NCBI GenBank assembly: GCA_963734525.1 | Contig: CAVTHI010000008.1 | Location: 20,714 to 84,713 of the forward strand | Direction: 5' to 3' | DNA length: 64,000 nt | Source of the DNA: an uncultured archaeon | GTDB lineage: Archaea > Micrarchaeota > Micrarchaeia > Anstonellales > Bilamarchaeaceae | Shown here: one piece after another, positions 4,233 to 44,888 of the stretch | Numbering within the stretch: position 1 is the stretch's first letter | Layout of the letters: every line of letters begins with the position of its first letter | Made by a program: the position numbers and the translations under genes | Notes under the pieces: generated by a model | Seen by the model: only the letters and a program-made list of their open reading frames with translations | Database searches by the model: none | Told to the model about the DNA's origin: nothing

Positions 4233-4264
4233 TTTGTCATAATCGGCGCGTTATACCGGGTTTA

Positions 4265-4540: not shown

Positions 4541-4545
4541 TTAAT

Positions 4546-4833: not shown

Positions 4834-5024
4834 CTTGTTGTCACACCCACAATGGTTGAGCTAAATAAAAGTCCGATTACAATTCCAAGTATGAATATTC
4901 CTGCGTCTATAGGATTACTTATTACGAAGGCAAATATGGCTATAAGATAACCAACCGCCATTAGTGCAAACAAAATTTGTTTGTTCTTTAAGATTATATC
5001 AAGAAAGGTTATTTTCTTCAACAT
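4827..5024 (-). CDS. small two-TM membrane protein (AT-rich islet)
   Basis: 65-aa ORF with two hydrophobic helices (ILFALMAVGYLIAIFAFVI, GIFILGIVIGLLFSSTIVGV). Confidence 0.5.
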   Translation of the reverse strand: MLKKITFLDIILKNKQILFALMAVGYLIAIFAFVISNPIDAGIFILGIVIGLLFSSTIVGVTTRW

Positions 5025-5259
5025 AATCCACTCCTGAAGCAGTTAATCTTGCACTTATGAAAACAGAGCCAAGAGCTTTAAATAATGTTACTCTACCTTT
5101 TTCTTCAAGATATAACATATTCGCAGCCAATTCTTATTCAGGTATTTTTAAGACGCTTATTAGGTCATCTCGCGTACTGTGAGCGTAGGGAGTCTTAAAA
5201 TAAATATCATATAGATGTTTCAGAATTTTCTTTCGAATTTCGTCCCGGTTCTTCTCCAT
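4999..5259 (-). pseudogene. winged-helix-like small regulator interrupted by an in-frame TAA
   Basis: My own translation of the minus strand gives MEKNRDEIRKKILKHLYDIYFKTPYAHSTRDDLISVLKIPE-TAA-ELAANMLYLEEKGRVTLFKALGSVFISARLTASGVDYVEENNLS-TGA. Both halves are below the 60-aa ORF-track cutoff. Read through, they form one 85-residue wHTH-like sequence. Confidence 0.45.
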
Positions 5260-5374
5260 CTTCTCAACCCACAAAATTGATATTTGCAAATCTTCTTAAT
5301 GCCCAGTGCTTTATTCGTTTTTTTTAGTATAATAGGTACATTGATACTATTCTCATCTCAGAGTATTGGCGATT

Positions 5375-8483: not shown

Positions 8484-8501
8484 AATATAATAATTAATAT
8501 A
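8484..8501 (+). promoter_or_regulatory. TATA-like box for 8521..9720 (divergent AT-rich promoter region 8410-8505)
   Basis: aatataataattaatata is centred about 28 nt upstream of the ATG at 8521. Further TATA-like elements (ttatatagtgtttaaaag) could serve the divergent gene. Confidence 0.4.
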
Positions 8502-8520
8502 CCGGCCGTGGAATCACATC

Positions 8521-9720
8521 ATGGCAAACAGACTTCCACAGGGGATGCGGCATGTTGCGGCGCTCCACCACGAGGAGCATGTGCGGAGGCACGCCATATT
8601 CAAGAGCTACCATGCCGAGGACCAGCATAAGCGGATACATGAGATGATACGGGAACGGAAGATGCTGGACCCTATAGAATCTGCGTACGCCCTCCAGGAG
8701 GGGAACAAGGGGCATGCGGCCCGCGTGTCCGGCTTCCAGGGGGAATTGCCGGAAAAGATAAAGACGCTCATGCTGGTATGCGCCGATGCGCGCATGGGGG
8801 GGATGTTCGATTTCGATGATTTCGCGAGGCGCGGCATCGCCGCGGTGTATGTGGCCGGCAATGTGTCCGACTTCCTGAACACATCCGGGGTGAAGGAGGT
8901 CTTCAGGCGAATGGACAAGGATTCCTCGATAGTCATCGCCGGCCACGCCAAATGCGGCGCCGTCCATTGCGCATCGGAGAAGGAGCAATACTCCCACCTC
9001 AAGAACATCGCCGTCCTCCTCCACCTGGTCTCGCCGACCGGGGAGCTCGACAACCTGCGGGCGCAGGCCGGGACGCTCGCCGCGAACGAAGCCTTCCAGA
9101 AGCTCACCGCCAGGAAGAACGTGCGAATCGTCAGCGCTTTCGTCGATATCGCGCACCATGAGCCCCAGATACGCCTGGTGGACGGCGACAAGGCGCAGGA
9201 GCAGGATAGGGAGCTCATCGACAGGCTTGACCGGGCCTTCCGGCGTTCGAACGGAGGCATGGACCTGTCTTCGCACCAGTTCGCGCATGCCGTAGTGATA
9301 TCCGGGCCGGCGCTCCCGTTCGACGCGCGTGAGATATTCTCCGCGGGCTCGAACGAGATATTCTGCGTGACCGGCGGGGATTATGGGGGGAAGAAGCACA
9401 AGGGCCACCTGTCCGAGGCCGAGATTGCCACGGTGGAGATGGCGTCGCTGGGGATGCTCGACGAGCAGTCGGTGGCGTCAATCGAGTATTCGGTCGAGAA
9501 GAACAAATCCCAGCATATCCTCCTGCTCCATACAGACCTCGCGGTCATCGATGCATGGGAAGCGCAGTTGATAAGGAAAAGCGACATCGTCTCGAACGCC
9601 CTCATCGAAGGCAGGCTCGAGATAACGACCGCCGTGTACGATTCGAGCACCGGCCGGGTGACGATGGTGCGCCACCTGGTGAACGAGGACGCCGCGGCCG
9701 CGATTTCCTCGAAGGTTTGA
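8521..9720 (+). CDS. two-domain beta-carbonic-anhydrase-like protein, paralog B (closest to canonical beta-CA)
   Basis: 399 aa. The N-half has LQEGNKGHA, LMLVCADARMGG (C-x-D-x-R), AAVYVAGNVSD (xAGN) and SIVIAGHAKCGAVHCA (G-H-x-x-C-G-A), in the order and spacing of beta-class CAs such as archaeal Cab. The C-half (HAVVISGPALPFDAREIF..SNEIFCVTGG..HILLLHTD..TTAVYDSSTGRV) is a degenerate second copy. Confidence 0.7.
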   Translation: MANRLPQGMRHVAALHHEEHVRRHAIFKSYHAEDQHKRIHEMIRERKMLDPIESAYALQEGNKGHAARVSGFQGELPEKIKTLMLVCADARMGGMFDFDDFARRGIAAVYVAGNVSDFLNTSGVKEVFRRMDKDSSIVIAGHAKCGAVHCASEKEQYSHLKNIAVLLHLVSPTGELDNLRAQAGTLAANEAFQKLTARKNVRIVSAFVDIAHHEPQIRLVDGDKAQEQDRELIDRLDRAFRRSNGGMDLSSHQFAHAVVISGPALPFDAREIFSAGSNEIFCVTGGDYGGKKHKGHLSEAEIATVEMASLGMLDEQSVASIEYSVEKNKSQHILLLHTDLAVIDAWEAQLIRKSDIVSNALIEGRLEITTAVYDSSTGRVTMVRHLVNEDAAAAISSKV

Positions 9721-9767: not shown

Positions 9768-10598
9768 TCAATCCAGCAGCGCCAGGACAGACGGCTCCCT
9801 TATGCGCCTGTTGAGCACGGATTTGTGGTCTTTCGGGAAATCCTTTATCGACTGGTGTATCATCTTCCTGAGGTCTGGCTCGACAGTGGAGACATACGAG
9901 TTGATGCCTTCCGCTTCGACTTCGGGAACGGTCAGGACGTGCAAATGGACGCCCAGGTGCTGCATGATTGTGCTCATGATAGGGTCGTTCTTGACCTTCC
10001 TCCGGATGTTATTGGCTTCGAGGACGTCCTTGCCGAGAAGGTAATAGTCGCGGAGGCCGAGGGTGACTATCGAATAGCATATGCCCCCCAGCTTATAGGG
10101 CCCGAAACTGCTGAACGGATTAAGCACGTTGGAGCCCGTCGCCAGGAACACGCTGCCCGCGACGTCGTAGTCGCTGGACTCCTTCAGGTTGAGGTATCGG
10201 ATTAGCGTTTCCCTCGGGTTGGCGATGTCCGGCGCGCATATAAGGCCGCAAACCGGCTTCTGGATGCTGCTCCGGCGAATCCTTTCGGGGTGGTTCTCCG
10301 GAAGGTGGTCCATGACGTAGCGCATGAGGCCCGCCATGTCGTCCAGTATCGTGTGGACGTGGAGGTTGTCGTCGATGCGTATCTTCAGGCCGGTCCGGTA
10401 ATTGAGGACGCCGCAGTTGACATGCACCGGAATCCGCTCCAGCTCGTTGTCGGCGTCCAGCGCCGTCCTCAGGTACTTCTTGGATTTCAGCGGCTCCTTG
10501 ACCGTGTCTATGCTGGTGAGGAAATCCTCGGCGCTCGTGCCCTCGTGGGCATAGACGTTTTTCAATAGGAGATAGAGGTCATCGTCGTTATCCAGCAT
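9768..10598 (-). CDS. beta-CA-like degenerate (C-terminal-type) domain protein, paralog C part 2
   Basis: 276 aa. VCGLICAPDIANPRETL...VAGSVFLATGSNV...GGICYSIVTLGLRDYYLLGKD parallels the C-halves of paralogs A and B. Its start overlaps the stop of 10588..11133 by 11 nt next to an A-rich run, so the two may be one gene. Confidence 0.5.
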   Translation of the reverse strand: MLDNDDDLYLLLKNVYAHEGTSAEDFLTSIDTVKEPLKSKKYLRTALDADNELERIPVHVNCGVLNYRTGLKIRIDDNLHVHTILDDMAGLMRYVMDHLPENHPERIRRSSIQKPVCGLICAPDIANPRETLIRYLNLKESSDYDVAGSVFLATGSNVLNPFSSFGPYKLGGICYSIVTLGLRDYYLLGKDVLEANNIRRKVKNDPIMSTIMQHLGVHLHVLTVPEVEAEGINSYVSTVEPDLRKMIHQSIKDFPKDHKSVLNRRIREPSVLALLD

Positions 10599-11133
10599 GA
10601 TTGTCTTTTCTTTCTTTGCGGCTTTTATCGAAGAAGGAGATTTCCGGCTTTATGTTGTAGAGCAGGCCCCGGATGGTTTTCCAGGCCTCGTTGGAATGGC
10701 TCATGCCGCAGTTGATGGCCGAGTCTGGGTTGATCATCTCCACCTCGGTTTCGGGATTGTACACGAGCTTGTTGACATCCGGCACCTTTATGTCCGCATG
10801 GCCGGAAATCTGGACGACCGTCTTGTGCAGGACGCCCGGACCCTGGTCCACCCTCACTTTTTCCCCGAATTCGCTCAGGCTGGAGTTGAGTCCGCCCTTG
10901 ATGATGTCCTTGATTTCGATATAGGATTGCTTGTTCACGACCGAGCCGGCGATGGTCACCCGGGAAATGAGCACCTTTACCCCGCGGGCGGCGTATTCCA
11001 GGATGAGGCTCCGCAAAATCTGATTTTCCACCGCACCCCCGTCGCGCGCGTCTGCGCAGCGGACCTGGATGACGTGCTGCACCTCGTCAACCGGATAGTT
11101 GACATTGAATGATAGCGTTGCTCTGGTTCCCAT
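10588..11133 (-). CDS. beta-CA-like N-terminal-type domain protein, paralog C part 1
   Basis: 181 aa with VIQVRCADARDGG (C-x-D-x-R), VVQISGHAD and a distal AINCGMSH. It is the first gene downstream of the NuoB-like gene on the same strand. Confidence 0.5.
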   Translation of the reverse strand: MGTRATLSFNVNYPVDEVQHVIQVRCADARDGGAVENQILRSLILEYAARGVKVLISRVTIAGSVVNKQSYIEIKDIIKGGLNSSLSEFGEKVRVDQGPGVLHKTVVQISGHADIKVPDVNKLVYNPETEVEMINPDSAINCGMSHSNEAWKTIRGLLYNIKPEISFFDKSRKERKDNHAG

Positions 11134-11241: not shown

Positions 11242-11820
11242 TTATATGGATTTCGGTTTTGCGTTTTTTGGCGGACTGCGGGTTTCTTCGCCCTTCCGCT
11301 TCTTGTCGATGGCCATGCCGGCTTTCAGTATCCCCGCGAGGAGCTCGTATGGGTCCGGCGGGTTGCCCGGGACTTTCACGTCAACCGGGACGACGCTCTC
11401 GACGCGCCCGTCCCCGGCCAGGGCGTAGCTCCCCTTGAACGGCCAGCCCGTGCATGCCCCGTCCCCTGCGGCGACGACGGCGCGGGGTTCGGCCATGGCT
11501 TCGTAGCTTTTAATCAGCGCGACTTTCATGTTCTGGGTGACCGGCCCGGTGACTATGAGGACGTCCGCGTGCCTCGGGGAGGCTACAAAGTGCACGCCGA
11601 AGCGCTCCGCATCGACGCGGGGGGCCATCATGAGCTGCTCCTCGAGCTCCACGTCGTTCGGCGAGCCGGCATCCACCATGCGCACGTGGATGGAGCGCGA
11701 GAACAGCGACATAGGCCGCTGCCTGAGCAGGAGCGCGACCTCGCGCACCGCAGGGTCGGGCGATTTCTCCGACACGCGGTCCGGGAAATATTCGAATGCG
11801 AGCTTCAGTGTTTCAAGCAT
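11242..11820 (-). CDS. NuoB/HycG/HyfI-like small subunit lacking the [4Fe-4S] ligands
   Basis: 192 aa. ERFGVHFVASPRHADVLIVTGPVTQNM...VPVDVKVPGNPPDP is unmistakably the NuoB/group-4 small-subunit fold. The Cys-ligand positions read DAGSPND, GDGACTGW and PGNPPDP, so 3 of 4 Cys are lost. Confidence 0.85.
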   Translation of the reverse strand: MLETLKLAFEYFPDRVSEKSPDPAVREVALLLRQRPMSLFSRSIHVRMVDAGSPNDVELEEQLMMAPRVDAERFGVHFVASPRHADVLIVTGPVTQNMKVALIKSYEAMAEPRAVVAAGDGACTGWPFKGSYALAGDGRVESVVPVDVKVPGNPPDPYELLAGILKAGMAIDKKRKGEETRSPPKNAKPKSI

Positions 11821-11829
11821 ATCAATCCC

Positions 11830-13407
11830 TCACAGGTCTGTTCCGGCATACGACATATTGAAACTCTTGTTTATCAGCGGGAAATCCGGCACGATGTCGC
11901 CGGGGACGAGGTTCTCGGCGCCGCGCCAGTTCTTGAACGACGCGGTCCTGCATGCGAGCCGCTCGATTTTGCCGTCATCGGAGAGCTCGACGAGGAACGC
12001 ACAGCCCCCGCGCGGAGCCTCGGCCCAGCCGACCCCGGTTCGCACGGATTCCTCGCTATCGGCCACCGCAGGTTCGCACTGCAGCTTGCCTGATGGCATG
12101 TGGGACGCGAGCCAGTTCACCAGCCGGACGGATTCCTTGACCTCCGCGAGTTTCACGAGGAATCTCGCGAGGACGTCGCCGGTCTTTTCCGTCGATTCCC
12201 TGAAGCCCGCATCCGCATAGGCCGAATAGGGAAGCGATTTGCGCAAATCGCAGCTAACCCCGCATGCGCGGGCGACAGGGCCCACGAGCGCGAGGTCTGC
12301 CGCTGCCTTCTGGGGGACGGCGCCGGTCGAGAAAACGCGGTTGAGGTATGTCGATGACTCGAGCGTGAAGCGCTCCACGCGCGCAAGCCGCTTCTCGAAA
12401 TCCGCCAGCGTGGAAGCGATTAAGGCCAGCTTCTCTTTCGGAAGGTCGCCGCTGACGCCGCCAACGACGCACATACCGCGGAGGAATCGGCTCCCCGTGA
12501 CTTTCCGGTTGAGCCTCATCATGTCCTCGCGGAGGACTGCGAACCTTGATGCGGACATCGTGAAGCCGACATCGGTCGGCATGCCGCCGAGGTCCGAGAG
12601 GTGGCTGTATATGCGCTCGAGCTCCAAGAGGATTGCGCGTATGTATTCGGCGCGCTCCGGGACCTTGAGGCCGCAGGCGCGCTCGACCGCATGGCAGTAG
12701 GCGACCCCGTTCGCGACGGACTCGTCCCCGGAAATCTGCTCAATCACGGGCAGTATTTCTACGGCGGCCTTGCCTTCGACGCTTTTCTCGACCCCCCGGT
12801 GCAGGTAGAACATGCGGGTTTCCAGCTTGTTTATCTGCTCGCCCACGATATGGAACCTGAAGTGCCCCGGCTCTATTATGCCGGCGTGCACCGGGCCGAC
12901 CGCCAGCTCGAATTCCCCTTCGGCCCCGGTGCCCTTTATCACGTAATCATCGTTCTTCTGCCGGACCAAGGCCTTGCCGCCGACCGGATGCTTGTCAGGC
13001 ATGCCGCTTTCAGGGTGGAAGATGAGCGGCCTGGAATCGGGTATCCCGGAGAGTCTCAGGCCGGTTAGGTCCTGCATCTTGCGCTCGTCCCATAACGCGG
13101 CGTTCACCGTCGCAGATAGCGCGGCGAACTCCTTCCCCTTGGCCCGGAGTATGAGCATCCGGCCTATCGCAGGGACGCGGAACAGGTAGGAGACCTCGAA
13201 TGCGCCCCCGGGGCGGGACGAGATGAAGCCTGAATCGAAAATCGCCCCGTTCGCCATGCTAGCCTTGCAGGCGGGGACGAGGTCGCTCTGGCGGAGGGAC
13301 GCCCAGATGCAGGCGCCGCGCTCGCTCCATGCCTCGATGGCCCCCTGCTTGAGTGATTTTTGGATTATTCCGGAGAATTTTTTCGTTTCGTCAGTCATAT
13401 CATCCAC
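11830..13407 (-). CDS. NuoC-NuoD fusion / HycE-HyfG-like large subunit lacking NiFe-binding cysteines
   Basis: 525 aa. GPVHAGIIEPGHFRF, FYLHRGVEK and EAPRG are family motifs. The N-terminal RxCGxC position reads IEQISGDESVANG. The C-terminal DPCxxCxx(H/R) position reads KSFNMSYAGTDL-stop. Confidence 0.85.
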   Translation of the reverse strand: MDDMTDETKKFSGIIQKSLKQGAIEAWSERGACIWASLRQSDLVPACKASMANGAIFDSGFISSRPGGAFEVSYLFRVPAIGRMLILRAKGKEFAALSATVNAALWDERKMQDLTGLRLSGIPDSRPLIFHPESGMPDKHPVGGKALVRQKNDDYVIKGTGAEGEFELAVGPVHAGIIEPGHFRFHIVGEQINKLETRMFYLHRGVEKSVEGKAAVEILPVIEQISGDESVANGVAYCHAVERACGLKVPERAEYIRAILLELERIYSHLSDLGGMPTDVGFTMSASRFAVLREDMMRLNRKVTGSRFLRGMCVVGGVSGDLPKEKLALIASTLADFEKRLARVERFTLESSTYLNRVFSTGAVPQKAAADLALVGPVARACGVSCDLRKSLPYSAYADAGFRESTEKTGDVLARFLVKLAEVKESVRLVNWLASHMPSGKLQCEPAVADSEESVRTGVGWAEAPRGGCAFLVELSDDGKIERLACRTASFKNWRGAENLVPGDIVPDFPLINKSFNMSYAGTDL

Positions 13408-14866
13408 CGATTACTTCCTCGACCACCATCGAGATGAGCCGGATGAGCGGTTCGGGCGGCGTCAGGCCGAAATAGACCGCGAGCAGCAAAAGCGCCAGGA
13501 ACGGCACGACCATCAACAGGGATGGTTTGAATTTTTCGACCCCTTCGGGAATTTTGCCGAAGCACATGCCGGAAGCGCGGTAAAGCAGGCTCGCGAATGT
13601 GATCGTCGTGCAGATTATGAACAGGAGGGCGACCAGGTACTGGCCCCCGGAAAGCGAAGCCGCGAGGACTCCCACCTCCGAGATGAACGTGCCGAAAGGC
13701 GGGCTGCCGGAAATCCCGACCGCGATGAAAACGAAGGGGATTGCGACCACCGGGACCACTTGGGCGGCGCCGCTGATGAGCCGTATCTCCTTGGTCTTGA
13801 ACGCCAGCGCTATCACGCCGCTTGAGAGGAAGGCGAGGGGCTTGGCGAGGGAATGGGACACCATGTGGAAGAGCGCGGCGAACATGCCTATCGGCCCCCC
13901 GAGGCCGAACGCGAGGACGACTATCCCCATGTTCTCGACGCTGGAATAGGCCAGCATGCGCTTGAGGTTGTCCTGGTAGAAGAGGCGCAACGCGCCCACG
14001 GCAAGCGAGAGCATGCCGAACACGATGAGCAGGCTGGACGCGAAAGACACGAGCTCAGGGTACGGGGCCAATATCTGGTAGGCCCTCACAATCCCGTGGA
14101 ACGCGATGTTCAGCAGGACGCCGGATAGCAGGGCGCTGACAGGCGTCGGGGCCTGGCTGTGCGCGTCCGGAAGCCACACGTGCAAAGGCACGAGGCCTAC
14201 CTTCGTACCGAACCCGACGAGTATGAATGCGAAGGCGATTTTCATGAAGAACAGGTTCACGCCGGTATGCGGGGCGAGGAGGCTCGGCCAGTCCCCCCAT
14301 GATGCCGAGTCCGGCGGAAGGACCGCGTACATGAGGAACATGATGCCTACGAGCGCGAGCAGGATGCCCACCGAGTTTATTATGAAGAACTTCCAGGCCG
14401 CCTCAATCGAGCTGGTCGTGTTATAGAAGCTGATGAGGAAGACGGACGCCAGCGTCGTGGCTTCAATCGCCGCCCACATCACGACGATATTCGAGGCGAG
14501 GGGGGCCACAAGCATCGCCGCGAGGAAAAACGAGAGCAGGCCGTAATATGTCCCCAGCCGGCTTTCGTCCACGGTCTTTTCCTCGACCTCGTGCCTGAGG
14601 TAGCCGATGGAATAGATGAATACGAAAAACGACACCAGGGCGGTCAGGGAAGTGAAAAGCGCGGAGATGGAATCGAGGTAGAGGAGGCCGTAGGACTCGA
14701 CGTACGGCACCGGCGCCTGGATGAAGCCCCATGTCACGAAGAGCGCGAAGAATGCTGCGAGCGAAGCGCCTGCCACCGCGGCCAGTTCCGCGGCCCTGGG
14801 GTGCTTGGACAGCAGGAACGCAAGGATTCCGGAAATGATCGGCGGCAGGATTATGAGTTCAAGCAT
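13400..14866 (-). CDS. antiporter-like subunit (NuoN/HyfF/MrpD family)
   Basis: 488 aa, polytopic, with AAIEATTLAS, GFGTKVGLVPLHVWLPDAHSQAPTPVSALLSG and HMVSHSLAKPLAFL. Confidence 0.85.
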   Translation of the reverse strand: MLELIILPPIISGILAFLLSKHPRAAELAAVAGASLAAFFALFVTWGFIQAPVPYVESYGLLYLDSISALFTSLTALVSFFVFIYSIGYLRHEVEEKTVDESRLGTYYGLLSFFLAAMLVAPLASNIVVMWAAIEATTLASVFLISFYNTTSSIEAAWKFFIINSVGILLALVGIMFLMYAVLPPDSASWGDWPSLLAPHTGVNLFFMKIAFAFILVGFGTKVGLVPLHVWLPDAHSQAPTPVSALLSGVLLNIAFHGIVRAYQILAPYPELVSFASSLLIVFGMLSLAVGALRLFYQDNLKRMLAYSSVENMGIVVLAFGLGGPIGMFAALFHMVSHSLAKPLAFLSSGVIALAFKTKEIRLISGAAQVVPVVAIPFVFIAVGISGSPPFGTFISEVGVLAASLSGGQYLVALLFIICTTITFASLLYRASGMCFGKIPEGVEKFKPSLLMVVPFLALLLLAVYFGLTPPEPLIRLISMVVEEVIGG

Positions 14867-14870
14867 GGGT

Positions 14871-15557
14871 TCACCTTTTCTCTATGAGTTCATCGAGTTC
14901 TTTCGTATCGAGGGTGCCGACCGTGCCGCGTATCTTGAGCGCCAGGAGCATGGCGACTATTATCAGGATCACCACGTCGAAAAGGGCGACCGCGTCGCTT
15001 ACGAAGGGCAGCTGTATCGGAAGGGCTATCGGAAGCAGGACCACGCCGTTCTCCATGAGGAGGAATCCGAGGAGCTGGAGCAGGAGGTTCGTCTTGACCG
15101 CGATTATGAGCATGCCTATCAGGATGAGCGACAGCACGAGCGGCAGCATGATGGTGGTCCCGCCGAGTATCGACGAGAGCAGGAACGCGAGGACGATGAG
15201 TATGCCGGAGTATGCCAGGATGCGCGCCGGGGTGACGTAGGAGCCGGTGAAGAGCGGGTCGAAGTCGAGGTTAAGCCTCAGGTCCTCCTTCGTCGCACGG
15301 AACACGTTGTAGAAGCGCGTGGGCAGCAGCTTCACTTCGCCGGGCATCACCCTGAACAGGTTGAAGAGCATGACCGGGATGAGCAGGAATTTCAGGATGA
15401 AGGTCGTGCCCACGCGGAAATACAGGTCCGGGGCGCCTTCACCCAGGGCGGACACGGCGAAGATGATGACGAGGCATGCGCTCTGTATCATGTAAAGCTC
15501 GACGCTGCGGTTGAATGTCGCGCTGAAGACGAAATACAGGGAGCTCAGCAGCATCAC
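14871..15557 (-). CDS. HyfE-like small polytopic membrane subunit
   Basis: 228 aa, about 7 TM. Its position between the NuoH-like and NuoN-like genes matches E. coli hyfE. Start is GTG 15557 or ATG 15554. Confidence 0.6.
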   Translation of the reverse strand: MMLLSSLYFVFSATFNRSVELYMIQSACLVIIFAVSALGEGAPDLYFRVGTTFILKFLLIPVMLFNLFRVMPGEVKLLPTRFYNVFRATKEDLRLNLDFDPLFTGSYVTPARILAYSGILIVLAFLLSSILGGTTIMLPLVLSLILIGMLIIAVKTNLLLQLLGFLLMENGVVLLPIALPIQLPFVSDAVALFDVVILIIVAMLLALKIRGTVGTLDTKELDELIEKR

Positions 15558-15574
15558 GAATACGAGCGCCGTTT

Positions 15575-16534
15575 CTATGGGCGACTCCGCCGGCCCCGGT
15601 GCCGGACAGCGTCGTGAGGAACGAGAGCAGTGCGAGGAGCATCGCGAGCATCAGGAGCTCGCCGACCTTGAACAGGCGCACCTTCACGCTGATGCTCTCC
15701 ACGACCGCGGTGAGCATCGCGAGGAGAAGCGAGACGCCGAGCACGAACACCGAGCGCATGATTGGGTCCGGCAGACGAGAGCGGCAGGAATATTATCGGG
15801 ATGAGCGCGAATAGGAGGAAAATCTTCGACGCATGGGCCCATTCGACGAAGGCGAGGCCGGGCCCGGAGTTCTCGAGTATCATCGCTTCGTGGACCATGG
15901 TGAGCTCGAGGTGCGTGGCCGGGTTGTCGAACGGAAGGCGTCCGGTTTCCGCCAGGATGATGATGAACAGGCCGAGCGCCGCTATCCAGTGCGCGGGCGA
16001 CAGCGCAAGCGCATCCCATGCGATGCCGCCTGATGCCAGCGGGGCGATGACGTTGAAGCCGCCCGATGCCGCCAGGAAGAGCACGACCGCGAAAAGAGCG
16101 GGCTCGATGAGCACGGAATAGAGCATCTCCCTGCTCGAACCCAGCCCGCCGAACGAGCTTCCCGCGTCAAGCCCGGAAAGCGCCGTGAGGAAGCGCCCGA
16201 TGGAGAAAAGGTATGCGAATACGATGATGTTCACCGCGAGGAATGAGACCGGCGAGAGGACGGGCAGCATGACGGACGCTATCGCGACCGAAACGAATCC
16301 GGCTACCGGGGCGATGACGAAGATGAACGACGTGGTGGAGCTCTTGGATTCGCCCTTTGAAAGGAGCTTGGCCAAATCCAGGTAAGGCTGGATTATGGGG
16401 CTGCCGGACCTCCCCTGCAGGCGGGCCTTCACCTTGCGCATGAGCCCGACGATGAGCGGGGAGAAGCCGAAGATGAAGATTATCTGGAGGAATGCCAGGA
16501 GAGCGGGTGTGGTGTCAGCAGCCATAAGGATCAC
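15575..16534 (-). CDS. NuoH/HyfC/HycD-like membrane subunit, apparently frameshifted near 15765-15790
   Basis: The N-terminal 255 aa are convincing (RKVKARLQGRSGSPIIQPYLDLAKLL, ETGRLPFDNPATHLELTMVHEAMILENSG). After ...IPIIFLPLSSAGP the sense continues in the frame of ORF 15439..15759 (IMRSVFVLGVSLLLAMLTAVVESISVKVRLFKVGELL...). The true 3' end is uncertain. Confidence 0.75.
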   Translation of the reverse strand: MILMAADTTPALLAFLQIIFIFGFSPLIVGLMRKVKARLQGRSGSPIIQPYLDLAKLLSKGESKSSTTSFIFVIAPVAGFVSVAIASVMLPVLSPVSFLAVNIIVFAYLFSIGRFLTALSGLDAGSSFGGLGSSREMLYSVLIEPALFAVVLFLAASGGFNVIAPLASGGIAWDALALSPAHWIAALGLFIIILAETGRLPFDNPATHLELTMVHEAMILENSGPGLAFVEWAHASKIFLLFALIPIIFLPLSSAGPNHALGVRARRLASPRDAHRGRGEHQREGAPVQGRRAPDARDAPRTALVPHDAVRHRGRRSRP

Positions 16535-18513
16535 AGCAGGGCATATATCAGTACTAATCCCAGCGTCACCATCAGGTAAACCAGGTAATCGCTTAGTTTT
16601 CCGGTCTGGAAAAATCTGGAGTAGGGCGCGAGCGCCTGGTACACGAGGGATATCGGCGTATATATCGTATAGTTGAACAGCTTGGACCCGTAAGCCGCCG
16701 GCTTTGACAGCGGGTCAAGCCAGACGTTGAGGCTCCGGGTTACCGGCATGGCGAATCCCGCCGCAGAATACTGCATGCGCGAAGTCACCGGGATGAAGCC
16801 GCAGGCCCATGTGTCGCCGGATTCCTGGCGCCTGCCCCTGCCGGAGAGCCAGGCCACCCCTCCGAGAAGGACCGAGCCAAGCACGAGCGCGAGCAGGATG
16901 GTGGACGTCTGGAGCCCCTCGGATGCGGCCACCAGCTGGAAGCTGGATGCTGCGGTGAAGCCGAAGGAATCGAAAATGCCGAGCGTTGCCTGCGCGATGA
17001 CCGCCGGGAATGCGCCTGCGGCGATGCATGCCAGCCCGAGAAGCGCCATCCCGGCCAGCATCGACGCGGGGGCCTCCTTCGCCTTCAGGGCATGAGGGCT
17101 CCGCGGAAGGCCGAGAAACGGGATTCCGAACGCCTTTACGAACGCCCCGACCGCGAGCGCGCTGGTGAGGGCGAGGAAAAGGACGGCCAATGAGAGGATG
17201 AGGGAAACCGGCGCCGGGATGCTTACGCCCCCGAGCAGGGCCTCGAATGTGAGAAGCTCGCTCACAAAGCCGTTCAGCGGGGGGATTGCGGCGATGGATG
17301 CGGAACCAAGGAGGAACAGCACGGCGGTGACGGGCATGAGTTTTGCCAGCCCGCCGAGCTCTTCGATGTTCCGCTCGTGCGTCGAATACGCTATGCTCCC
17401 TGCGCCAAGGAAAAGGAGGCTCTTGAACAGGGCGTGGTTGAGCGTGTGGTAGAGGCAAGCGAAAAGGGCGAGGGCGGCCAGCTCAGGAAGCTTCAGGGAC
17501 GCGAAAATCACCGCGGCCCCGAGGCCGATGAAGATTATCCCGATGTTCTCGATGCTGTGCATGGCGAGCAGGCGCTTCATGTCGTGCTCCAGCAGGGAGT
17601 AAAGGACCCCGAGCACGGACGAGAACATTCCGAGGACGAGGATTGCGACGCCCCACCACATCTCGTTCCCGGTGCCCACGATTCCCAGGAATCCGAAGAG
17701 GACGCGCACGAGGCCGTATATGGCGGTCTTGAGCATGACGCCGGACATGAGCGCCGATACGTTGCTCGGAGCCTGCGGGTGCGCGAGGGGGAGCCAGATG
17801 TGGAGCGGTATGATGCCGCATTTAGAGCCGAACCCCACCAGGGCGAGAACGAAGACCGCGTCCAGAAGGAGCGGGGCGTACGAAGCCTGCGGGAAGGAGC
17901 TGAAATCCGCCGACCCGGAGCCGCTCGCAAGTATGAGGAACATCAGTATGAGCGCGACGGCGCCCACGTGGGTGATGACGAGGTAATTGAAGCCGGCGGA
18001 TTTGACGCCCTCCTCCTTGTGCTCGAAGGTGACAAGGAAGAACGAGCTCAGGGCCATGGCTTCCCAGAGGACCAGGAATAGCACGGCATTCTGCGCGGCG
18101 ACGACGAGAATCATGGAGAGCAGGAAGATGTTGTACAGGAATGCGAAGCGGCTCAGGCTGTAGCCCTTTTCCCGGTATTCGTCGGCATAGGAAATCGAGT
18201 ATATGGAAACCGCGGCCCCGACGAATGCGATGATGGATACGAAAAGGCCGGAGAGCGCGTCGATGCTGAATGAAAGCGAGCCGAGCTGCCCGAGCTCGGC
18301 GAGGGTGAAGGCCTGCGTGCCTGCGCCGAGGAAGGATGCTATGCCGGCCGCAAGGGCTGTTATGCTCCCCGCCAGAGCGAGGCCGAACCCCAGGATTGAG
18401 CTTATGCGGGGGTTCCGCGCGGAAAGGAGGGGCAGGAATGCGCCTGCGAGGAAGAAAAGCGACGAGACAATTAGTGCGGGCTGACCTAAAATATTCATAT
18501 CGAGGGGAGTCAT
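16531..18513 (-). CDS. antiporter-like subunit (NuoL/HyfB/HycC family)
   Basis: 660 aa with LWEAMALSSFFLV, GSKCGIIPLHIWLPLAHPQAPSNVSALMSGVMLK and HTLNHALFKSLLFLGAGS. It is the first gene of the operon. Confidence 0.9.
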   Translation of the reverse strand: MTPLDMNILGQPALIVSSLFFLAGAFLPLLSARNPRISSILGFGLALAGSITALAAGIASFLGAGTQAFTLAELGQLGSLSFSIDALSGLFVSIIAFVGAAVSIYSISYADEYREKGYSLSRFAFLYNIFLLSMILVVAAQNAVLFLVLWEAMALSSFFLVTFEHKEEGVKSAGFNYLVITHVGAVALILMFLILASGSGSADFSSFPQASYAPLLLDAVFVLALVGFGSKCGIIPLHIWLPLAHPQAPSNVSALMSGVMLKTAIYGLVRVLFGFLGIVGTGNEMWWGVAILVLGMFSSVLGVLYSLLEHDMKRLLAMHSIENIGIIFIGLGAAVIFASLKLPELAALALFACLYHTLNHALFKSLLFLGAGSIAYSTHERNIEELGGLAKLMPVTAVLFLLGSASIAAIPPLNGFVSELLTFEALLGGVSIPAPVSLILSLAVLFLALTSALAVGAFVKAFGIPFLGLPRSPHALKAKEAPASMLAGMALLGLACIAAGAFPAVIAQATLGIFDSFGFTAASSFQLVAASEGLQTSTILLALVLGSVLLGGVAWLSGRGRRQESGDTWACGFIPVTSRMQYSAAGFAMPVTRSLNVWLDPLSKPAAYGSKLFNYTIYTPISLVYQALAPYSRFFQTGKLSDYLVYLMVTLGLVLIYALL

Positions 18514-18658: not shown

Positions 18659-18679
18659 CATTCATGATGAGATGATACC

Positions 18680-19117
18680 ATGGAGAAAGTGCTCATTTTG
18701 GCCGGAAGCAAAAGCGACGAGGATGTGGCAAGGCAGGCCATGGACGTCCTTGCGGCGTTCAGCGTCCCGTACCGCTTTGAAATCGCGTCGGCCCACAGGA
18801 ATCCCGAGAAGGTCGACAGGCTGGTCAGGGAAACGACAGCGCAGGTCTTCATCGCCATCGCGGGGATGAGCGCCGCGCTCCCGGGCGTGGTCGCCGCGAG
18901 GACCACTAAACCGGTCATCGGGGTGCCCGTCAACGCGTCGCTCGACGGCCTGGACGCACTCATGTCGGTGGCCCAGATGCCGCCGAACGTGCCTGTCGCG
19001 GCGGTCGGAATCGGGATGGGCAAGAACGCCGCGCTCCTGGCGGTGCAGATGCTCGCCCTCGGCGATGCGGCGCTTGCGGCGAGGCTCGCCGAATTCAAGG
19101 AAAAACTCAAGCAGTGA
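18680..19117 (+). CDS. purE: N5-carboxyaminoimidazole ribonucleotide mutase (PurE)
   Basis: 145 aa with ILAGSKSD, ASAHRNP, IAGMSAALPGVVAARTTKPVIGVPV and LMSVAQMPPNVPVAAVGIG. Confidence 0.9.
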   Translation: MEKVLILAGSKSDEDVARQAMDVLAAFSVPYRFEIASAHRNPEKVDRLVRETTAQVFIAIAGMSAALPGVVAARTTKPVIGVPVNASLDGLDALMSVAQMPPNVPVAAVGIGMGKNAALLAVQMLALGDAALAARLAEFKEKLKQ

Positions 19118-19120
19118 ACA

Positions 19121-20347
19121 GTGAAGCGAATGGCAGACTCCGAACAGACTTACCAGCTGAAGAAGACGCTGAAGAAGCTCGAGGGATACCGCGGCAGCGG
19201 GACCGAGCTGATTTCGGTCTACATACCGGCGGGCTCGCCCATACACGAGATGGGCAACAAGCTCCGCGAGGAGATGAGCCAGGCGAGCAACATCAAGTCG
19301 AAATCCACGAAGCTTAACGTGCTCGGTGCGCTCGAGCGCATTATGAACCACTTCAAGATTTACAAGAAGCCCCCGGCGAACGGCATCGCGGTGTTCGCGG
19401 GGAACGTCTCGGACAACCCGGCGAAGGTGGACATCGAGCTTTTCGCCATCGAGCCCCCGGAAAAGCTCAACATCGGGGCGTACCGGTGCGACAGCAGGTT
19501 CTTCCTCGAGCCGCTCCAGTCCATGCTCGGCTCGACCGATTCCTACGGCATCGTGGTCCTGGACGGGCGCGAGGCGACGGTGGCGATGGTCAAGGGGACC
19601 AACATCACGATAATAAAGAAGCTGAACTCGACGGCGCATGCCAAAATCAGGAAGGGGGGCCAGAGCGCCCGCAGGTACGAGCGCCTCATCGAGGAGGCGA
19701 TAGAGGTATATTACAAGAGGGTCGGCGACTCGATGGACAACGCCTTCCTGAGGAACGAGAAGAGCATCGTCAAGGGCGTCATCGTGGGCGGACCCGGGCC
19801 GACGAAGGAGTTCTTCATGAAGATGAGCCCGTTCAACTACCAGCTGAAGGTCCTGGGCGTCGTCGACACCGGCTACACCGAGGAATACGGCATCCGCGAG
19901 GTGCTTTCCAAAAGCGAGGACATACTGTCCCAGCAGGAGGCCGTGAAGGAGAAAATACTCGTGGACAGGTTCATCAAGTCCGTGGTCAACGAAGGGCTCG
20001 CCACATACGGCGAGAAGGAGGTGCGCGAGGCTATACTGTCGCACCAGGCCGACAAGGTCATGCTGTCCGAAGGCCTCGCGCACACGAGCGTTCTGTACAA
20101 ATGCCCGTCCTGCGGCACCGAGGCGAGGAAGGCCTTCCGGGACAAGCCGGAGGACTCGATGCCGTGCCCGAAATGCAATTCGTCGATGAAGGAGCAGTCC
20201 AGGGAGCTCCTTATCGACGAATTGAACGAGCTTGCTCGGCAGAACGAGATTCCGGTGGAGATTATCTCGACGAACACCGTGGAGGGCAACCAGTTCCTCA
20301 CCGGCTTCGGCGGAATCGGCGCGTTCCTCAGGTACAAGACGAGGTAG
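19121..20347 (+). CDS. prf1: peptide chain release factor aRF1
   Basis: 408 aa with the NIKSKSTK motif, GGQSARRYERL (GGQ) and a C-terminal Zn-ribbon-like CPSCG...CPKC. Confidence 0.95.
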   Translation: MKRMADSEQTYQLKKTLKKLEGYRGSGTELISVYIPAGSPIHEMGNKLREEMSQASNIKSKSTKLNVLGALERIMNHFKIYKKPPANGIAVFAGNVSDNPAKVDIELFAIEPPEKLNIGAYRCDSRFFLEPLQSMLGSTDSYGIVVLDGREATVAMVKGTNITIIKKLNSTAHAKIRKGGQSARRYERLIEEAIEVYYKRVGDSMDNAFLRNEKSIVKGVIVGGPGPTKEFFMKMSPFNYQLKVLGVVDTGYTEEYGIREVLSKSEDILSQQEAVKEKILVDRFIKSVVNEGLATYGEKEVREAILSHQADKVMLSEGLAHTSVLYKCPSCGTEARKAFRDKPEDSMPCPKCNSSMKEQSRELLIDELNELARQNEIPVEIISTNTVEGNQFLTGFGGIGAFLRYKTR

Positions 20348-20458: not shown

Positions 20459-21171
20459 ACTTTTATGCCGCAGGTGCCGAGGCTGTATTCCGGCCCGACG
20501 AAGACTACCATGCCGTTGCTGTAGTATTTCGCCCCGCCCGGGCCTTCCCGGACGTAAATCGTGGTGCCGTCTTTCAGCATCGCGAAGCACTCCTTCGGCT
20601 TGCGGAAGCCGTCGGGAGTCACGCACCCGTCGTTCCCGAAGGAAATCGGGGTGACCTCCTTGCCGCCCATGCCGCTGCTCGCCGCGAAATCCACCCCGCA
20701 TTGCAGGATGTTGTTGGCGACCGCGGTGTTCGATGCGCCCCGGACGTCCATGACGATGAACACGTTCGTGGAGTGCGTGAATATGCCCTTGAACGTCTCG
20801 GCGTCGACTTCGGTGCCCGGAACGAACGAGTTCTCATTGAGCGCCAGGAAGTAGTATGCGAGGAACAGCACCGCTGCGACGAGCCCGAAAATCATGATGC
20901 CTTTGACTAGCCCGCCCTGCTCGCGCCTGCCTTCCATGCCAGCCCCGGATTTTAGCGAAATCGGAACGGGTTTGGAGCTTGCGCTCGCGGGCCCGGCGAT
21001 TGGCGCGAACGCCGGCTTTTCGCCGGATACCGCGGCTTCCTGCGCGGGTTTCTGCTCCGCTGCAGGCTTGGGCTTGGCCACCTCTTTTTCCATCGGGGCT
21101 TTTGCGGTCTCGGGCGCTTTCGCCGCGCCCTTTGCAGAAGCCGTTTTAGCGGTTTTTTTTGCCATATGCAT
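20452..21171 (-). CDS. membrane-anchored extracytoplasmic protein with Lys/Ala/Pro-rich N-terminus
   Basis: ORF 20452..21198. The ATG at 21171 overlaps the TGA of the upstream gene by 1 nt. One TM (IMIFGLVAAVLFLAYYFLAL). The C-terminal domain is related to the C-terminus of 21171..23273. Confidence 0.65.
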   Translation of the reverse strand: MHMAKKTAKTASAKGAAKAPETAKAPMEKEVAKPKPAAEQKPAQEAAVSGEKPAFAPIAGPASASSKPVPISLKSGAGMEGRREQGGLVKGIMIFGLVAAVLFLAYYFLALNENSFVPGTEVDAETFKGIFTHSTNVFIVMDVRGASNTAVANNILQCGVDFAASSGMGGKEVTPISFGNDGCVTPDGFRKPKECFAMLKDGTTIYVREGPGGAKYYSNGMVVFVGPEYSLGTCGIKVT

Positions 21172-38441: not shown

Positions 38442-38452
38442 GACAAGGTCGC

Positions 38453-40610: not shown

Positions 40611-40750
40611 GAAGAAATCCCGCCTTCGCGCCTTCGCAGACGCAGATATGGCTTCTTGCGGGTAAAGCATTAAAACAAGGCTATAAGGCGGGGTATGAGG
40701 GGGGCAATGGCGAGAGCCATGGGACGGGCAAAAGGGTGGCGGCAGGCCGC

Positions 40751-44856: not shown

Positions 44857-44888
44857 TCAGGCCATTATCTGACCAAGGATGATTGTTG

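Follow-up and report, generated by a model that had tools for sequence, protein, structure and literature searches.

What does a membrane complex of the complex I/hydrogenase type do when a reduced, symbiotic-type archaeon retains it under strong selection and without residues for redox metals? This question is raised by the minus strand of positions 11242-18513 of the window, i.e., the whole 64-kb stretch of a Candidatus Micrarchaeota (DPANN) genome that was analysed. We assign the locus to the Ehr-type (energy-converting-hydrogenase-related) operons, with EhrA, a fused EhrB-C, EhrD, EhrL and EhrS, and therein to a subclass with two metal-free former catalytic subunits; we put the probability of this assignment at about 95%. 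That is, the locus represents a new, fully cofactor-free variant of the known Ehr family, whose function is given as unknown in the literature on Ehr complexes.

Gene content and relation to known complexes

All genes of the operon are encoded on the minus strand, and their composition and order (EhrA-B-C-D-L-S) correspond to HyfB-C-E-F-G-I. EhrA (16531-18513, 660 aa) is a HyfB/NuoL-like antiporter subunit (Pfam Proton_antipo_M, 3.4e-47) with hydrogenase-4 subunit B as best NCBIfam match (1.5e-185). EhrB-C (14871-16534) combines a NuoH/HycD-like N-terminal half with a HyfE/NuoK-like C-terminal half, and its best PDB match is HycD (7z0s_D, 6e-25). Next are EhrD (13400-14866, 488 aa), a HyfF/NuoM-like antiporter subunit (Proton_antipo_M, 6.5e-52), and EhrL (11830-13407, 525 aa), a NuoC-NuoD/HycE-like 'large subunit' without NiFe ligands. 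Last comes EhrS (11242-11820), a NuoB/HycG-like 'small subunit' without [4Fe-4S] ligands (Pfam Oxidored_q6, 2.9e-20), whose ORF has 192 aa compared to 180 aa in the related locus L084, the C-terminal tails being different.

The original prediction had described six genes colinear with hyfB-C-E-F-G-I. The order holds, but the count does not, i.e., the lineage has five genes with the HyfC- and HyfE-like parts fused into one gene of 535-550 aa that is intact in all eight related Micrarchaeota loci (L081-L089). In the window, 1-nt insertions, one near 15773 and the other near 15584, interrupt this gene, which therefore reads as two ORFs, namely for the EhrB part (15575-16534, NADHdh) and the EhrC part (14871-15557, HyfE/Oxidored_q2). 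When the 550-aa protein of L084 is compared to the window (tblastn), the region is covered in three frames with 96-100% identity. Both insertions are probably contig errors. A comparable 1-nt indel in the window puts the catalytic N-terminus of GlmS (MCGIIGYVG) out of frame, such that the frameshifts point to errors of the contig and not to a selective decay of the Ehr operon.

The gene set and order as well as the clustering of the large subunit support the earlier Ehr-like reading. EhrL groups with homologs of Nitrospira, ammonia-oxidising archaea and Desulfotomaculum, from which Ehr has been reported (PMC10284858, PMC10432482). As in the Ehr examples Geobacter sulfurreducens GSU0739-0745 and Desulfotomaculum ruminis Desru_3260-3265 (named in passages of PMC7894505, PMC3569383 and PMC6349859 that refer to Coppi 2005 and Marreiros 2013), the order is NuoL-, NuoH-, HyfE-, NuoM-, NuoCD- and NuoB-like, the NiFe CxxC pairs are missing from the large subunit, and dedicated electron-input genes are absent. 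In contrast to most of the sampled Ehr relatives, the Micrarchaeota small subunit has no [4Fe-4S] ligands, and it lacks a NuoI-like domain; the fusion of EhrB and EhrC and the DPANN host are further differences to known Ehr.

The best sequence and fold matches are found in the E. coli formate hydrogenlyase (FHL)/hydrogenase-4, i.e., HycE (1.5e-60, TM 0.85) as well as HycG and HycD. These membrane-bound [NiFe] hydrogenases (HycE/HycG, 7z0s; hyfABCDEFGHIJ) resemble the window operon in the fusion of NuoC with NuoD, in the beta1-beta2 loop of HycE type and in the hyfB-C-E-F-G-I order, while the window operon lacks the NiFe site, the Fe-S cluster, the ferredoxin subunits HyfA/HyfH/HycB/HycF, the third antiporter subunit HyfD and nearby hyp or formate dehydrogenase genes. 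With regard to Pyrococcus Mbh (6cfw) and Mbs/Mbx (6u8y), MbhJ is the best PDB match of EhrS, and MbhH, MbhL and MbhM match EhrD, EhrL and EhrB, respectively. These systems likewise join a hydrogenase-type module to Mrp-type ion modules, and Mbs/Mbx provide a precedent for a non-hydrogenase descendant; the three [4Fe-4S] clusters, the redox active site and the full Mrp-like MbhA-I set of Mbh/Mbs are all missing from the window operon. Seven core subunits are homologous to respiratory complex I/NDH-1 (NuoB, C, D, H, K, L, M), with the Lys/Glu chain of the antiporters conserved and the NiFe Cys absent from NuoD as from EhrL. Compared to complex I, the ligands of cluster N2, the electron chain of the N-/Q-module and separate NuoA, NuoJ and NuoN genes are lacking.

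It had also been stated that neither a HyfA/HyfH/NuoI-type ferredoxin nor hyp genes are encoded in the window. This is in accordance with our scans: a six-frame scan of the 64 kb gave no occurrence of the ferredoxin motif CxxCxxCxxxC, and no hyp or ferredoxin family was found among that part of the ORFs which was scanned with Pfam.

Metal ligands of the former catalytic subunits

In the phmmer alignment of EhrL with E. coli HycE (7z0s_E), RVCGICGFAH is aligned to QISGDESVAN and DPCYSCTD to NMSYAGTD. All four NiFe Cys columns are thus substituted (S226, E229, S519, G522), which confirms the predicted loss at both motif positions. Residues 222-234 (12706-12744, minus strand), which take the place of the L1 motif RxCGxCxxxH, read IEQISGDESVANG. 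The L2 motif DPCxxCxx(H/R) is replaced by residues 514-525 (11833-11868, minus strand), which read KSFNMSYAGTDL and end at the stop codon. Among the 120 closest EhrL homologs, E-x-x-S-G-D-E-x-x-A-N is near-invariant; S-G-D is conserved in Fe-S-keeping Ehr as well, and the C-terminus lies at exactly the same alignment column in 77/77 family members. Judged by these alignments, the NiFe site has not simply decayed; it is replaced by the family-wide motifs E-x-x-S-G-D and -SY[AS]G[TN]D[LR]-, the latter with a stop at a fixed column.

The fold of the subunit seems to be preserved. An AF2 model of EhrL (pLDDT 82, pTM 0.87) has 7z0s_E as best Foldseek match (TM 0.85, 27% identity), and the HycE-like beta1-beta2 loop (HAGIIEPGH) is retained. 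Nor is EhrL a quinone reductase in disguise, since the Tyr and His columns of the complex I quinone site hold Gly227 (alignment to 7q5y_B) and Ile178, respectively.

For EhrS, the comparison with HycG and MbhJ places AGSPNDV (P54, V57) at CGGCNGC/SCNGC, G121 of GDGAC at the Cys of GAC, and PGNPP (N153) at PGCPP. The respective sites are DAGSPNDVE (11647-11673), GDGACTGW (11443-11466) and PGNPPDP (11350-11370), all on the minus strand. While three of four Cys had been predicted to be gone, all four canonical ligand columns are in fact replaced: the surviving C123 is located two columns behind the ligand column, at a position where about 10/120 relatives have V or I. The substitutions are identical in 120/120 nearest homologs.

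The prediction had left room for Cys ligands that are merely displaced by indels. The loss is real, because the same motifs are found in L084 and L085, which are independent assemblies with about 93% nucleotide identity, and in 120 relatives each of the large and the small subunit, again from independent assemblies.

Cluster loss within the family and selection on the membrane arm

To place the Micrarchaeota operon within the family, we used species genomes ranked by similarity to the window protein. All four small-subunit Cys are kept in 62/77 of these relatives, 14 of which (14/62) carry a fused ferredoxin-like domain. The supplement of PMC6349859 also describes NuoB-NuoI fusions, namely in Ehr complexes from Firmicutes, Margulisbacteria and hyperthermophiles among bacteria and archaea. 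The ancestral function of the Ehr family was thus probably redox-linked, and cofactor-free forms may do another job. Within this sample, loss of the proximal Fe-S cluster is not typical of Ehr and defines a minority, polyphyletic and fully cofactor-free subclass.

At least three losses of the small-subunit cluster can be told apart, i.e., in Micrarchaeota together with a Methanosarcina/Dehalococcoidia clade, in CPR bacteria and in one member of the Chloroflexota. Throughout these independent losses the SGD and C-terminal motifs and all membrane subunits were kept, which argues that the core function needs no electron input. In 12/14 cluster-less loci among the species genomes no ferredoxin motif was found (the window being scanned separately). 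No flanking gene family common to several phyla was observed, i.e., the six-gene module is self-contained. ATP-synthase genes adjoin 4/21 cluster-less compared to 0/62 Fe-S-keeping operons (Fisher p=0.003), a difference made up of 2-3 independent events in small genomes; they are divergent at L089, while atpD is directly upstream and co-oriented at L033 and L068.

As predicted, the antiporter-like subunits keep the charged transmembrane motifs. All of them were located, namely at residues 149-158, 229-233, 238-242 and 360-368 of EhrA and 133-139, 220-224, 229-236 and 338-344 of EhrD. Across 73 family members, E151, K231, H238, H360 and K364 of EhrA show little or no variation, and E135, K222, H229, K302, H338, K342 and E397 of EhrD are conserved family-wide. 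In both subunits, Glu in TM5, Lys in TM7, His/Lys in TM8 and Glu in TM12 are invariant (73-82 family members). The alignment of EhrD to MbhH, together with the conservation, supports a functional EhrD. Relative to L084, the dN/dS values of the four unbroken genes are 0.06 (EhrA), 0.07 (EhrD), 0.12 (EhrL) and 0.06 (EhrS), with 0.05 for eRF1 as comparison; the operon is under strong purifying selection.

Possible functions of a complex without redox metals

Since all metal-binding residues for redox chemistry are gone, the complex would move ions without electron transfer. We tentatively propose a secondary, Mrp-like cation/proton translocator, to which we give somewhat less than even odds; ion movement, the ions concerned, their direction and the role of the EhrL/EhrS cap are what we infer here. 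The ion paths would run through the antiporter-like EhrA and EhrD and the NuoH/NuoK-like EhrB-C, while the hydrogenase-derived cap would plug or gate the channel on the NuoH side from the cytoplasm. Conserved polar and acidic residues (E223, S226, D228, E229, Y520, D524 and the C-terminal carboxylate) now fill the old NiFe pocket, where they could take up protons or a cation or pass them on. Cluster-less forms occur in DPANN and CPR organisms, for which a fermentative and reduced metabolism is described (PMC12892359). In such a cell without respiratory chain, the complex might interconvert H+ and Na+ (or K+) gradients from the A-type ATPase or, alternatively, serve pH regulation.

Mrp and DAB set a precedent, as they use antiporter-like subunits of the complex I type without redox chemistry (PMC13144422). 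The Mrp Na+/H+ antiporter, DAB (DabAB) and Cup-NDH-1 are built on Proton_antipo_M subunits and are redox-independent, and thus offer an analogy for the proposed mechanism. In contrast to the window operon, Mrp includes MrpB/E/F/G and no NuoB/D/H-like cap, and DAB consists of a single antiporter-like subunit plus DabA. A pure antiporter leaves unexplained why a costly 700-residue cytoplasmic cap is kept under tight constraint, whereas Mrp works without NuoB/D/H-like subunits. Against ion translocation also stands that EhrB-C of the window carries frameshifts.

The conserved SGD(E) pocket could instead be a catalytic site for non-Cys-ligated chemistry. In an alternative reading, the complex would still be an energy-converting oxidoreductase, in which a dissociable partner (a ferredoxin, or a soluble dehydrogenase encoded elsewhere) feeds a non-Cys cofactor (carboxylate-bound Fe/Mn or flavin-like) in the SGDE pocket and ions are pumped as in Mbh, FHL or complex I. 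The literature sees Ehr as redox-coupled ion translocation (PMC6349859, bioRxiv 10.1101/765248), which fits the NuoB cluster kept in most family members, the NuoI-like domain of some, the pocket motifs conserved in both classes alike and the retained HycE-like loop and fold. We nevertheless consider such an enzyme rather unlikely for the Micrarchaeota clade, where both metal sites lack any conserved Cys or pair of His and neither the window nor the eight related loci hold a linked ferredoxin, hyp or dehydrogenase gene. Furthermore, it is not evident how electrons would get from the surface to the pocket when the proximal cluster is absent, and this cluster was lost independently at least three times.

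Improbable, too, is that the Micrarchaeota complex powers, from within the membrane, a vectorial carbonic anhydrase (CA) of DAB/Cup type, where neighbouring soluble beta-CA-like proteins dock on it and CO2/HCO3- interconversion is coupled to the ion gradient, as known for DabA/DabB and CupA/NDH-1 (PMC13144422; bioRxiv 10.1101/476713). The window encodes a 399-aa protein (8521-9720, plus strand) which, aligned to M. tuberculosis beta-CA, keeps CADAR and GHxxCG. Its counterpart in L084, with 97% identity, reaches 46 bits in the comparison with Pfam Pro_CA, where the cut-off is 25.7; the paralog in the window (7165-8343, minus strand) keeps CVDAR...HKSCG. Such genes lie at most three genes from Ehr in the window, L081, L082/83, L084/85 and L086 (EhrL identity 56-93%). 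However, the linkage is limited to a single clade of archaea that also shares the synteny of eRF1, PurE and GlmS, such that it may be plain inherited gene order. CA-like genes are absent near Ehr in L087, L088 and 80/80 loci of other phyla, including the cluster-less operons of Methanosarcina and CPR bacteria. TM helices are absent from the CA-like proteins, which do not belong to DabA (PF10070) either, and one of the genes sits on the opposite strand.

The loss of all cofactor ligands, the two frameshifts in EhrB-C and another one in the downstream gene would also suit a functionless relic, i.e., a pseudogenised hydrogenase operon of a reduced genome. The low dN/dS values (0.06-0.12), intact genes in the eight related loci and hundreds of genomes, near-invariant replacement motifs and the similar indel in GlmS make this highly improbable. 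Finally, a true [NiFe] hydrogenase or complex I hidden by sequence errors or misalignment, for which the 1-nt indels of the contig, database names of homologs ('Ni,Fe-hydrogenase III large subunit', 'NADH-quinone oxidoreductase subunit C') and a 'group 4e hydrogenase' of a Micrarchaeon (mentioned by citation in PMC8561730) might speak, is refuted by the shared motifs, by ligand columns that are ungapped in the HycE, HycG and MbhJ alignments, and by single-frame colinearity of EhrL and EhrS with the L084 proteins over the full length, save for the divergent C-terminal tail of EhrS and, close to the N-terminus of EhrL, one pair of indels that compensate each other.

The gene directly downstream of and co-oriented with Ehr (9771-11133, minus strand), here called family X, is a possible lineage-specific accessory gene of the Ehr system. 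It encodes 454 aa in relatives and is split in the window by a 1-nt insertion near 10623 (tblastn, two frames). A Pfam search gave no match, and only 10 homologs were found, all from Micrarchaeota. The AF2 model is weak (pLDDT 68), with the tandem beta-CA 1ddz_A as top Foldseek match (E=1e-3, TM 0.28). Paralogs of family X flank Ehr in L084-86 and are present on both sides in L088.

Operon composition and metal-ligand columns

The six minus-strand genes at 11242-18513 follow the gene order hyfB-C-E-F-G-I of the original prediction, and this order is real according to Pfam and NCBIfam matches, structural relatives and a model of EhrL. Both antiporter-like subunits, i.e., EhrA (660 aa; best NCBIfam match hydrogenase-4 subunit B) and EhrD (488 aa; HyfF), match Pfam Proton_antipo_M, while EhrB (319 aa) matches NADHdh (NuoH) and EhrC (228 aa) HyfE/Oxidored_q2. 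The large subunit EhrL (525 aa) combines Complex1_30kDa with Complex1_49kDa/NiFeSe_Hases (NuoC-NuoD/HycE), and the small subunit EhrS (192 aa) matches Oxidored_q6 (NuoB/HycG). That is, the window holds the module of NuoL-, NuoH-, HyfE-, NuoM-, NuoCD- and NuoB-like parts, with B and C fused. The NuoH- and HyfE-like parts form a single gene of 535-550 aa in the related Micrarchaeota loci L081, L082/83, L084, L085, L086, L087, L088 and L089.

MAGs of Candidatus Micrarchaeota, Ca. Anstonella among them, supply the closest EhrL and EhrS homologs (46-93% identity). Two independent assemblies, L084 (JGI) and L085 (ENA), are colinear with window positions 773-22080 at ~93% nucleotide identity. Among solved structures, E. 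coli formate hydrogenlyase (FHL) HycE (E=1.5e-60), HycG and HycD as well as Pyrococcus MbhJ, MbhH and MbhL are closest. The AlphaFold2 model of EhrL (pLDDT 82, pTM 0.87) superposes best with HycE (7z0s_E; TM 0.85, 27% identity), followed by complex I NuoCD.

In the ungapped phmmer alignment with HycE, QISGDESVAN of EhrL lies opposite RVCGICGFAH and NMSYAGTD opposite DPCYSCTD. All four NiFe Cys columns are substituted (S226, E229, S519, G522), as predicted for the large subunit, and the L1 Arg and His columns read Q224 and N233. Neither the L1 (RxCGxCxxxH) nor the L2 (DPCxxCxx(H/R)) motif of group 4 [NiFe] hydrogenases is thus present in EhrL. Compared with HycG/MbhJ, EhrS shows P54 and V57 in place of the two N-terminal cluster Cys, G121 in place of the GAC(P/G) Cys and N153 in place of the PGCPP Cys, such that it has none of the proximal [4Fe-4S] ligands (CxxC...C...C). 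The predicted loss of three out of four cluster Cys was therefore a miscount: all four canonical columns are replaced, since the seemingly retained C123 (in GDGAC) is located two columns past the ligand column and is Val/Ile in ~10/120 nearest homologs.

Signature residues of related redox complexes are missing as well. The cluster N2 ligands of the complex I (NDH-1) subunit NuoB are absent from EhrS, and in an ungapped alignment with Aquifex NuoCD (7q5y_B), Gly227 and Ile178 of EhrL occupy the columns of the quinone-site Tyr and His, where the placing of Nqo4 Y87 and H38 follows motifs we take to be the relevant ones. EhrL is thus not a NuoD-type quinone site. In Mbs (6u8y), MbsJ and MbsN hold three [4Fe-4S] clusters, and MbsL still has part of a Cys pair. 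For Mbx/Mbs, too, no ligand column of EhrL or EhrS is occupied by Cys, and the window has no NuoI-like gene. A CxxCxxCxxxC motif occurs in no frame of the 64-kb window, and Pfam scans of most larger window ORFs revealed housekeeping and glycosylation genes and no hyp, ferredoxin or ATPase genes. This is in accordance with the predicted absence of hyp and of a HyfA/HyfH/NuoI-type ferredoxin from the window.

The Ehr family and its small-subunit classes

The Ehr family itself is already known. According to PMC7894505, PMC3569383 and PMC6349859, the complexes were first named in Geobacter. They have been reported for Desulfotomaculum, Nitrospira, ammonia-oxidising archaea (AOA), Margulisbacteria and Elusimicrobia (PMC3569383, PMC10284858, PMC10432482, PMC6349859, bioRxiv 10.1101/765248), and the literature gives their function as unknown (PMC7894505 and the five sources just listed). 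Our pattern scan with one genome per GTDB species returned at least 599 loci, among them archaea (Methanosarcina, Methanomassiliicoccales, ammonia-oxidising archaea) and bacteria (Nitrospira, Acidobacteriota, Firmicutes, Chloroflexota, Verrucomicrobiota, Paraburkholderia and several CPR phyla). Almost all of the best 80 among these at least 599 loci show the order A-B-C-D-L-S; exceptions are truncated contigs and an S-first variant (S-A-B-C-D-L) in CPR and a few others.

The Ehr label of the operon is supported by subunit set and order, the missing CxxC and the grouping of its large subunit. On a neighbour-joining tree, which is distance-based and includes neither bootstrap values nor a hydrogenase outgroup nor Geobacter sequences, EhrL groups with homologs from the Ehr-reported taxa Nitrospira, AOA and Desulfotomaculum (compare PMC10284858, PMC10432482, PMC3569383). 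With known Ehr complexes, the window shares the subunit order and a group-4-related large subunit without NiFe CxxC (S/E and S/G at the Cys columns). In contrast, the usual Ehr small subunit bears Fe-S (NuoB-type, often NuoI-fused), whereas the window EhrS does not. Cluster loss is what sets the window operon apart from a typical Ehr.

All four cluster Cys are kept in 62/77 small subunits, while the ligands are lost in 15/77, window included. For 14/62 Fe-S-keeping loci, CxxCxxCxxxC is found in the same ORF as EhrS and for 10 more in an adjacent co-oriented ORF. An N-terminal ferredoxin-like stretch, i.e., a NuoI-NuoB fusion, is present in the Fe-S-keeping loci L005, L007 and 12 further ones. 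NuoB-NuoI fusions of Ehr complexes, with which these counts agree, have been described before (supplement of PMC6349859). Both classes have the S-G-D and C-terminal EhrL motifs in common; a Glu at the fourth position is restricted to the Micrarchaeota/Methanosarcina clade.

Cluster-less sequences take three places on the EhrL tree: the Micrarchaeota clade with its sister group of Methanosarcina, Methanoregula, Dehalococcoidia and Moduliflexus, a CPR clade, and a single Chloroflexota sequence with the ferredoxin-like stretch still present. Provisionally, this suggests that the Fe-S cluster was lost at least three times; the count is provisional because the tree is distance-based, unrooted by an outgroup and without support values. 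In the Chloroflexota locus L077, the NuoB-type ligand columns read ECED and the ferredoxin-like stretch is kept, such that this locus may represent a transitional state on the way to cofactor loss.

We found no functional or structural study of any Ehr in the literature; among PDB structures, FHL comes nearest with 27% identity. The accessible literature appears to contain no description of a fully cofactor-free subclass, of the polyphyletic origin of this subclass or of its presence in DPANN/CPR, with a prior mention being possible.

Selective constraint, mechanism and gene neighbourhood

For the window versus L084, dN/dS values are 0.06 (EhrA), 0.07 (EhrD), 0.12 (EhrL) and 0.06 (EhrS), next to 0.05 for the comparison gene eRF1. 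E-x-x-S-G-D-E-x-x-A-N and K-S-x-N-[LM]-S-Y-[AS]-G-x-D-[LM] of EhrL are near-invariant among the 120 closest sequences (to 40% overall identity), and so are GS[PS]NDVE[LI]E, GDGA[CVI] and GNPP of EhrS among the 120 closest small subunits. The EhrL C-terminus falls on one identical alignment column in 77/77 family members, which is where mature [NiFe] large subunits terminate. Among 73-82 sequences, both EhrA and EhrD show no or hardly any variation at TM5 Glu, TM7 Lys, TM8 His/Lys and TM12 Glu. Since every quoted motif was found as well, the charged TM residues of both antiporter-like subunits are kept as originally claimed. Such strong constraint, judged from sequence comparison, argues that the Ehr genes of the window are functional.

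We tentatively favour, with a probability of about 0.4, that the complex works without electron transfer as an Mrp-like secondary cation/proton translocator. This reading builds on the absent ligands, the strong constraint, the intact ion residues, the lack of a cis-encoded donor and the repeated cluster loss. The MrpA/D-type chain of TM5 Glu, TM7 Lys and TM12 Lys-Glu is present in EhrA/EhrD, whereas MrpB/E/F/G are absent and the operon has NuoH-, NuoD- and NuoB-like genes instead; that is, the complex is not an Mrp and may work like one. In this model, the EhrL/EhrS cap would plug or gate the NuoH-side channel, the acidic EhrL pocket would be a site for protons or cations, and the ATPase would work side by side with the complex. 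Complex I antiporter-like subunits driven purely by membrane potential are described for DAB (PMC13144422), and the cluster-less lineages are known for a fermentative, reduced metabolism (PMC12892359). The main weakness of the translocator reading is that the keeping of a large, tightly conserved cytoplasmic cap is unaccounted for.

A cryptic redox enzyme that uses a non-Cys cofactor or a dissociable partner is unlikely. A redox role is implied by the Fe-S-bearing small subunit of usual Ehr complexes; in the window complex, it would have to manage without Cys ligands and a cis-encoded donor.

Concerning possible partners, no gene was conserved across phyla next to 86 Ehr loci; the top clusters, a histidine kinase and an ABC-F ATPase, reach at most 10 loci each. 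Without a common flanking family, the Ehr module is self-contained. ATP-synthase genes are located within 10 kb of four cluster-less operons versus 0/62 Fe-S-keeping ones (Fisher p=0.003). In the divergent Micrarchaeota locus L089 (1-4192), genes for A/V-type I, c, E and AC39 subunits are divergent from Ehr; in the CPR loci L033 (455-1864) and L068 (1510-3512), the F-type beta gene atpD immediately precedes Ehr in the same orientation; L049 has an ATP-synthase gene ~5 kb away. We treat this adjacency as a hint, because it reflects only 2-3 independent events in small genomes.

Less probable again is a Micrarchaeota-specific DAB-like vectorial carbonic anhydrase (CA) that involves flanking CA-like proteins. 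Two such proteins, paralogous, soluble, ~395 aa long and 25% identical (family Y), are encoded at 8521-9720 (+) and 7165-8343 (-), and the family flanks Ehr in five Micrarchaeota loci. Their motifs CADAR...GHAKCG and CVDAR...HKSCG leave CxDxR and HxxCG intact, and the L084 copy (97% identical to the 8521-9720 protein) scores 46 bits against Pfam Pro_CA. The beta-CA motifs are embedded in a longer, apparently internally duplicated architecture. DAB, however, combines DabA (PF10070, membrane-anchored and beta-CA-like) with one DabB, whereas the window proteins match Pro_CA (PF00484) only, have no TM segment and are linked to Ehr only within Micrarchaeota. In other phyla, neither family Y nor its neighbour family X was found near Ehr, and a scan of all other loci for canonical beta-CA motifs was negative. 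Synteny extends to eRF1, PurE and GlmS, such that the linkage may reflect an inherited gene order.

Family X, likewise soluble, is encoded at 9771-11133 (-) as the next gene after EhrS; in L088, the Ehr operon lies between two of its paralogs. The family has no Pfam match and only 10 homologs in 5.8 billion proteins, all from Micrarchaeota, with C26-x-D28-x-R30, H112 and C142 invariant. The top Foldseek match of a weak AF2 model is the tandem beta-CA 1ddz_A (E=1e-3, marginal). A relationship to family Y is not supported, given a hhalign probability of 0.4% and no profile similarity.

A much wider reading is speculative and rather improbable. Here, cofactor-free Ehr complexes would be an unrecognised class of redox-independent gradient-coupled machines, convergent in DPANN, CPR, some methanogens and Dehalococcoidia. 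Their ex-hydrogenase pocket (E-x-x-S-G-D-E / SYAGTDL-COO-) would now be a non-redox catalytic or ion-gating site, and in Micrarchaeota they may partner flanking beta-CA-like proteins (DAB/Cup-like, CO2/bicarbonate) or the ATPase as the only H+/Na+ converter. If true, this would offer a natural "redox-less complex I" for dissecting the communication of the NuoB/D/H module with antiporter subunits. The probability that the translocator reading and its rivals leave over goes to something else.

Ehr complexes are widespread in nitrifiers, Geobacter-type metal reducers, acidobacteria, methanogens, CPR and DPANN, and have been listed as "function unknown" in genome papers since 2005, with redox-driven ion pumping as the accepted guess. 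This guess is called into question by a subclass that has repeatedly lost every metal ligand while under strong purifying selection, and whose hosts have hardly any redox metabolism: either the core Ehr function was never electron-dependent, or a purely chemiosmotic device can be made from the complex I architecture. The subclass provides a handle on both the role of Ehr and the coupling of complex I-like cytoplasmic modules to antiporter subunits. In Micrarchaeota MAGs, Ehr genes are named 'Ni,Fe-hydrogenase III' or 'NADH-quinone oxidoreductase', which can mislead readers into assuming H2 metabolism or respiration in DPANN. The 'group 4e hydrogenase' cited in PMC8561730 may be such a case.

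Reading frames, contig errors and further window features

Relative to the two independent ~93%-identical assemblies, the window shows uncompensated 1-nt indels. Insertions near 15773 and 15584 spread the EhrB-C gene over three frames, an insertion near 10623 breaks the family X gene (454 aa in relatives), and a deletion near 7098 puts the catalytic N-terminus of GlmS (MCGIIGYVG) out of frame. Since GlmS is frameshifted too, contig errors are the economical and most likely explanation, and ORF calls elsewhere in the 345-kb contig need care. A pseudogene was rejected due to the low dN/dS, the intact relatives and the similar 1-nt frameshift in GlmS; a relic without function is, given the strong constraint, very improbable.

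EhrL and EhrS are in a single frame throughout; the only exceptions are two mutually compensating indels close to the N-terminus of EhrL and the divergent C-terminal tail of EhrS. Because L084 and L085 show the same EhrL and EhrS motifs, the scenario named as refuting in the original prediction, i.e., ligands merely displaced by indels, is excluded, and an alignment or sequence-error artefact behind the ligand absence is hardly conceivable.

Two apparent neighbours of the operon are spurious antisense ORFs: upstream, 18662-20083 (-) overlies the real plus-strand genes PurE and eRF1, and downstream, 8494-9408 (-) overlies the CA-like gene at 8521-9720 (+). The window eRF1 (19130-20344, +) is free of inteins; in related Micrarchaeota, LAGLIDADG inteins are found in eRF1 (L086 1450-4191) and Cdc6 (L081 9149-11428). 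Scans for tRNAs and Rfam families gave no matches in the window.

An AT-rich island of 1.1 kb (4233-5374; GC about 0.44 vs 0.59 for the contig) is located between a PQQ-propeller gene and GlmS. Its minus strand holds a row of small ORFs (43-95 aa), some of them hydrophobic. The island is replaced by a 70-nt spacer in L084 and may be a small inserted cassette. Finally, three long ORFs without Pfam match, 37146-41195 (-), 44883-47417 (+) and 21171-23273 (-) with 1349, 844 and 700 aa, respectively, are surrounded by genes for glycosyltransferases and polysaccharide export; their products may be surface or S-layer-type proteins.
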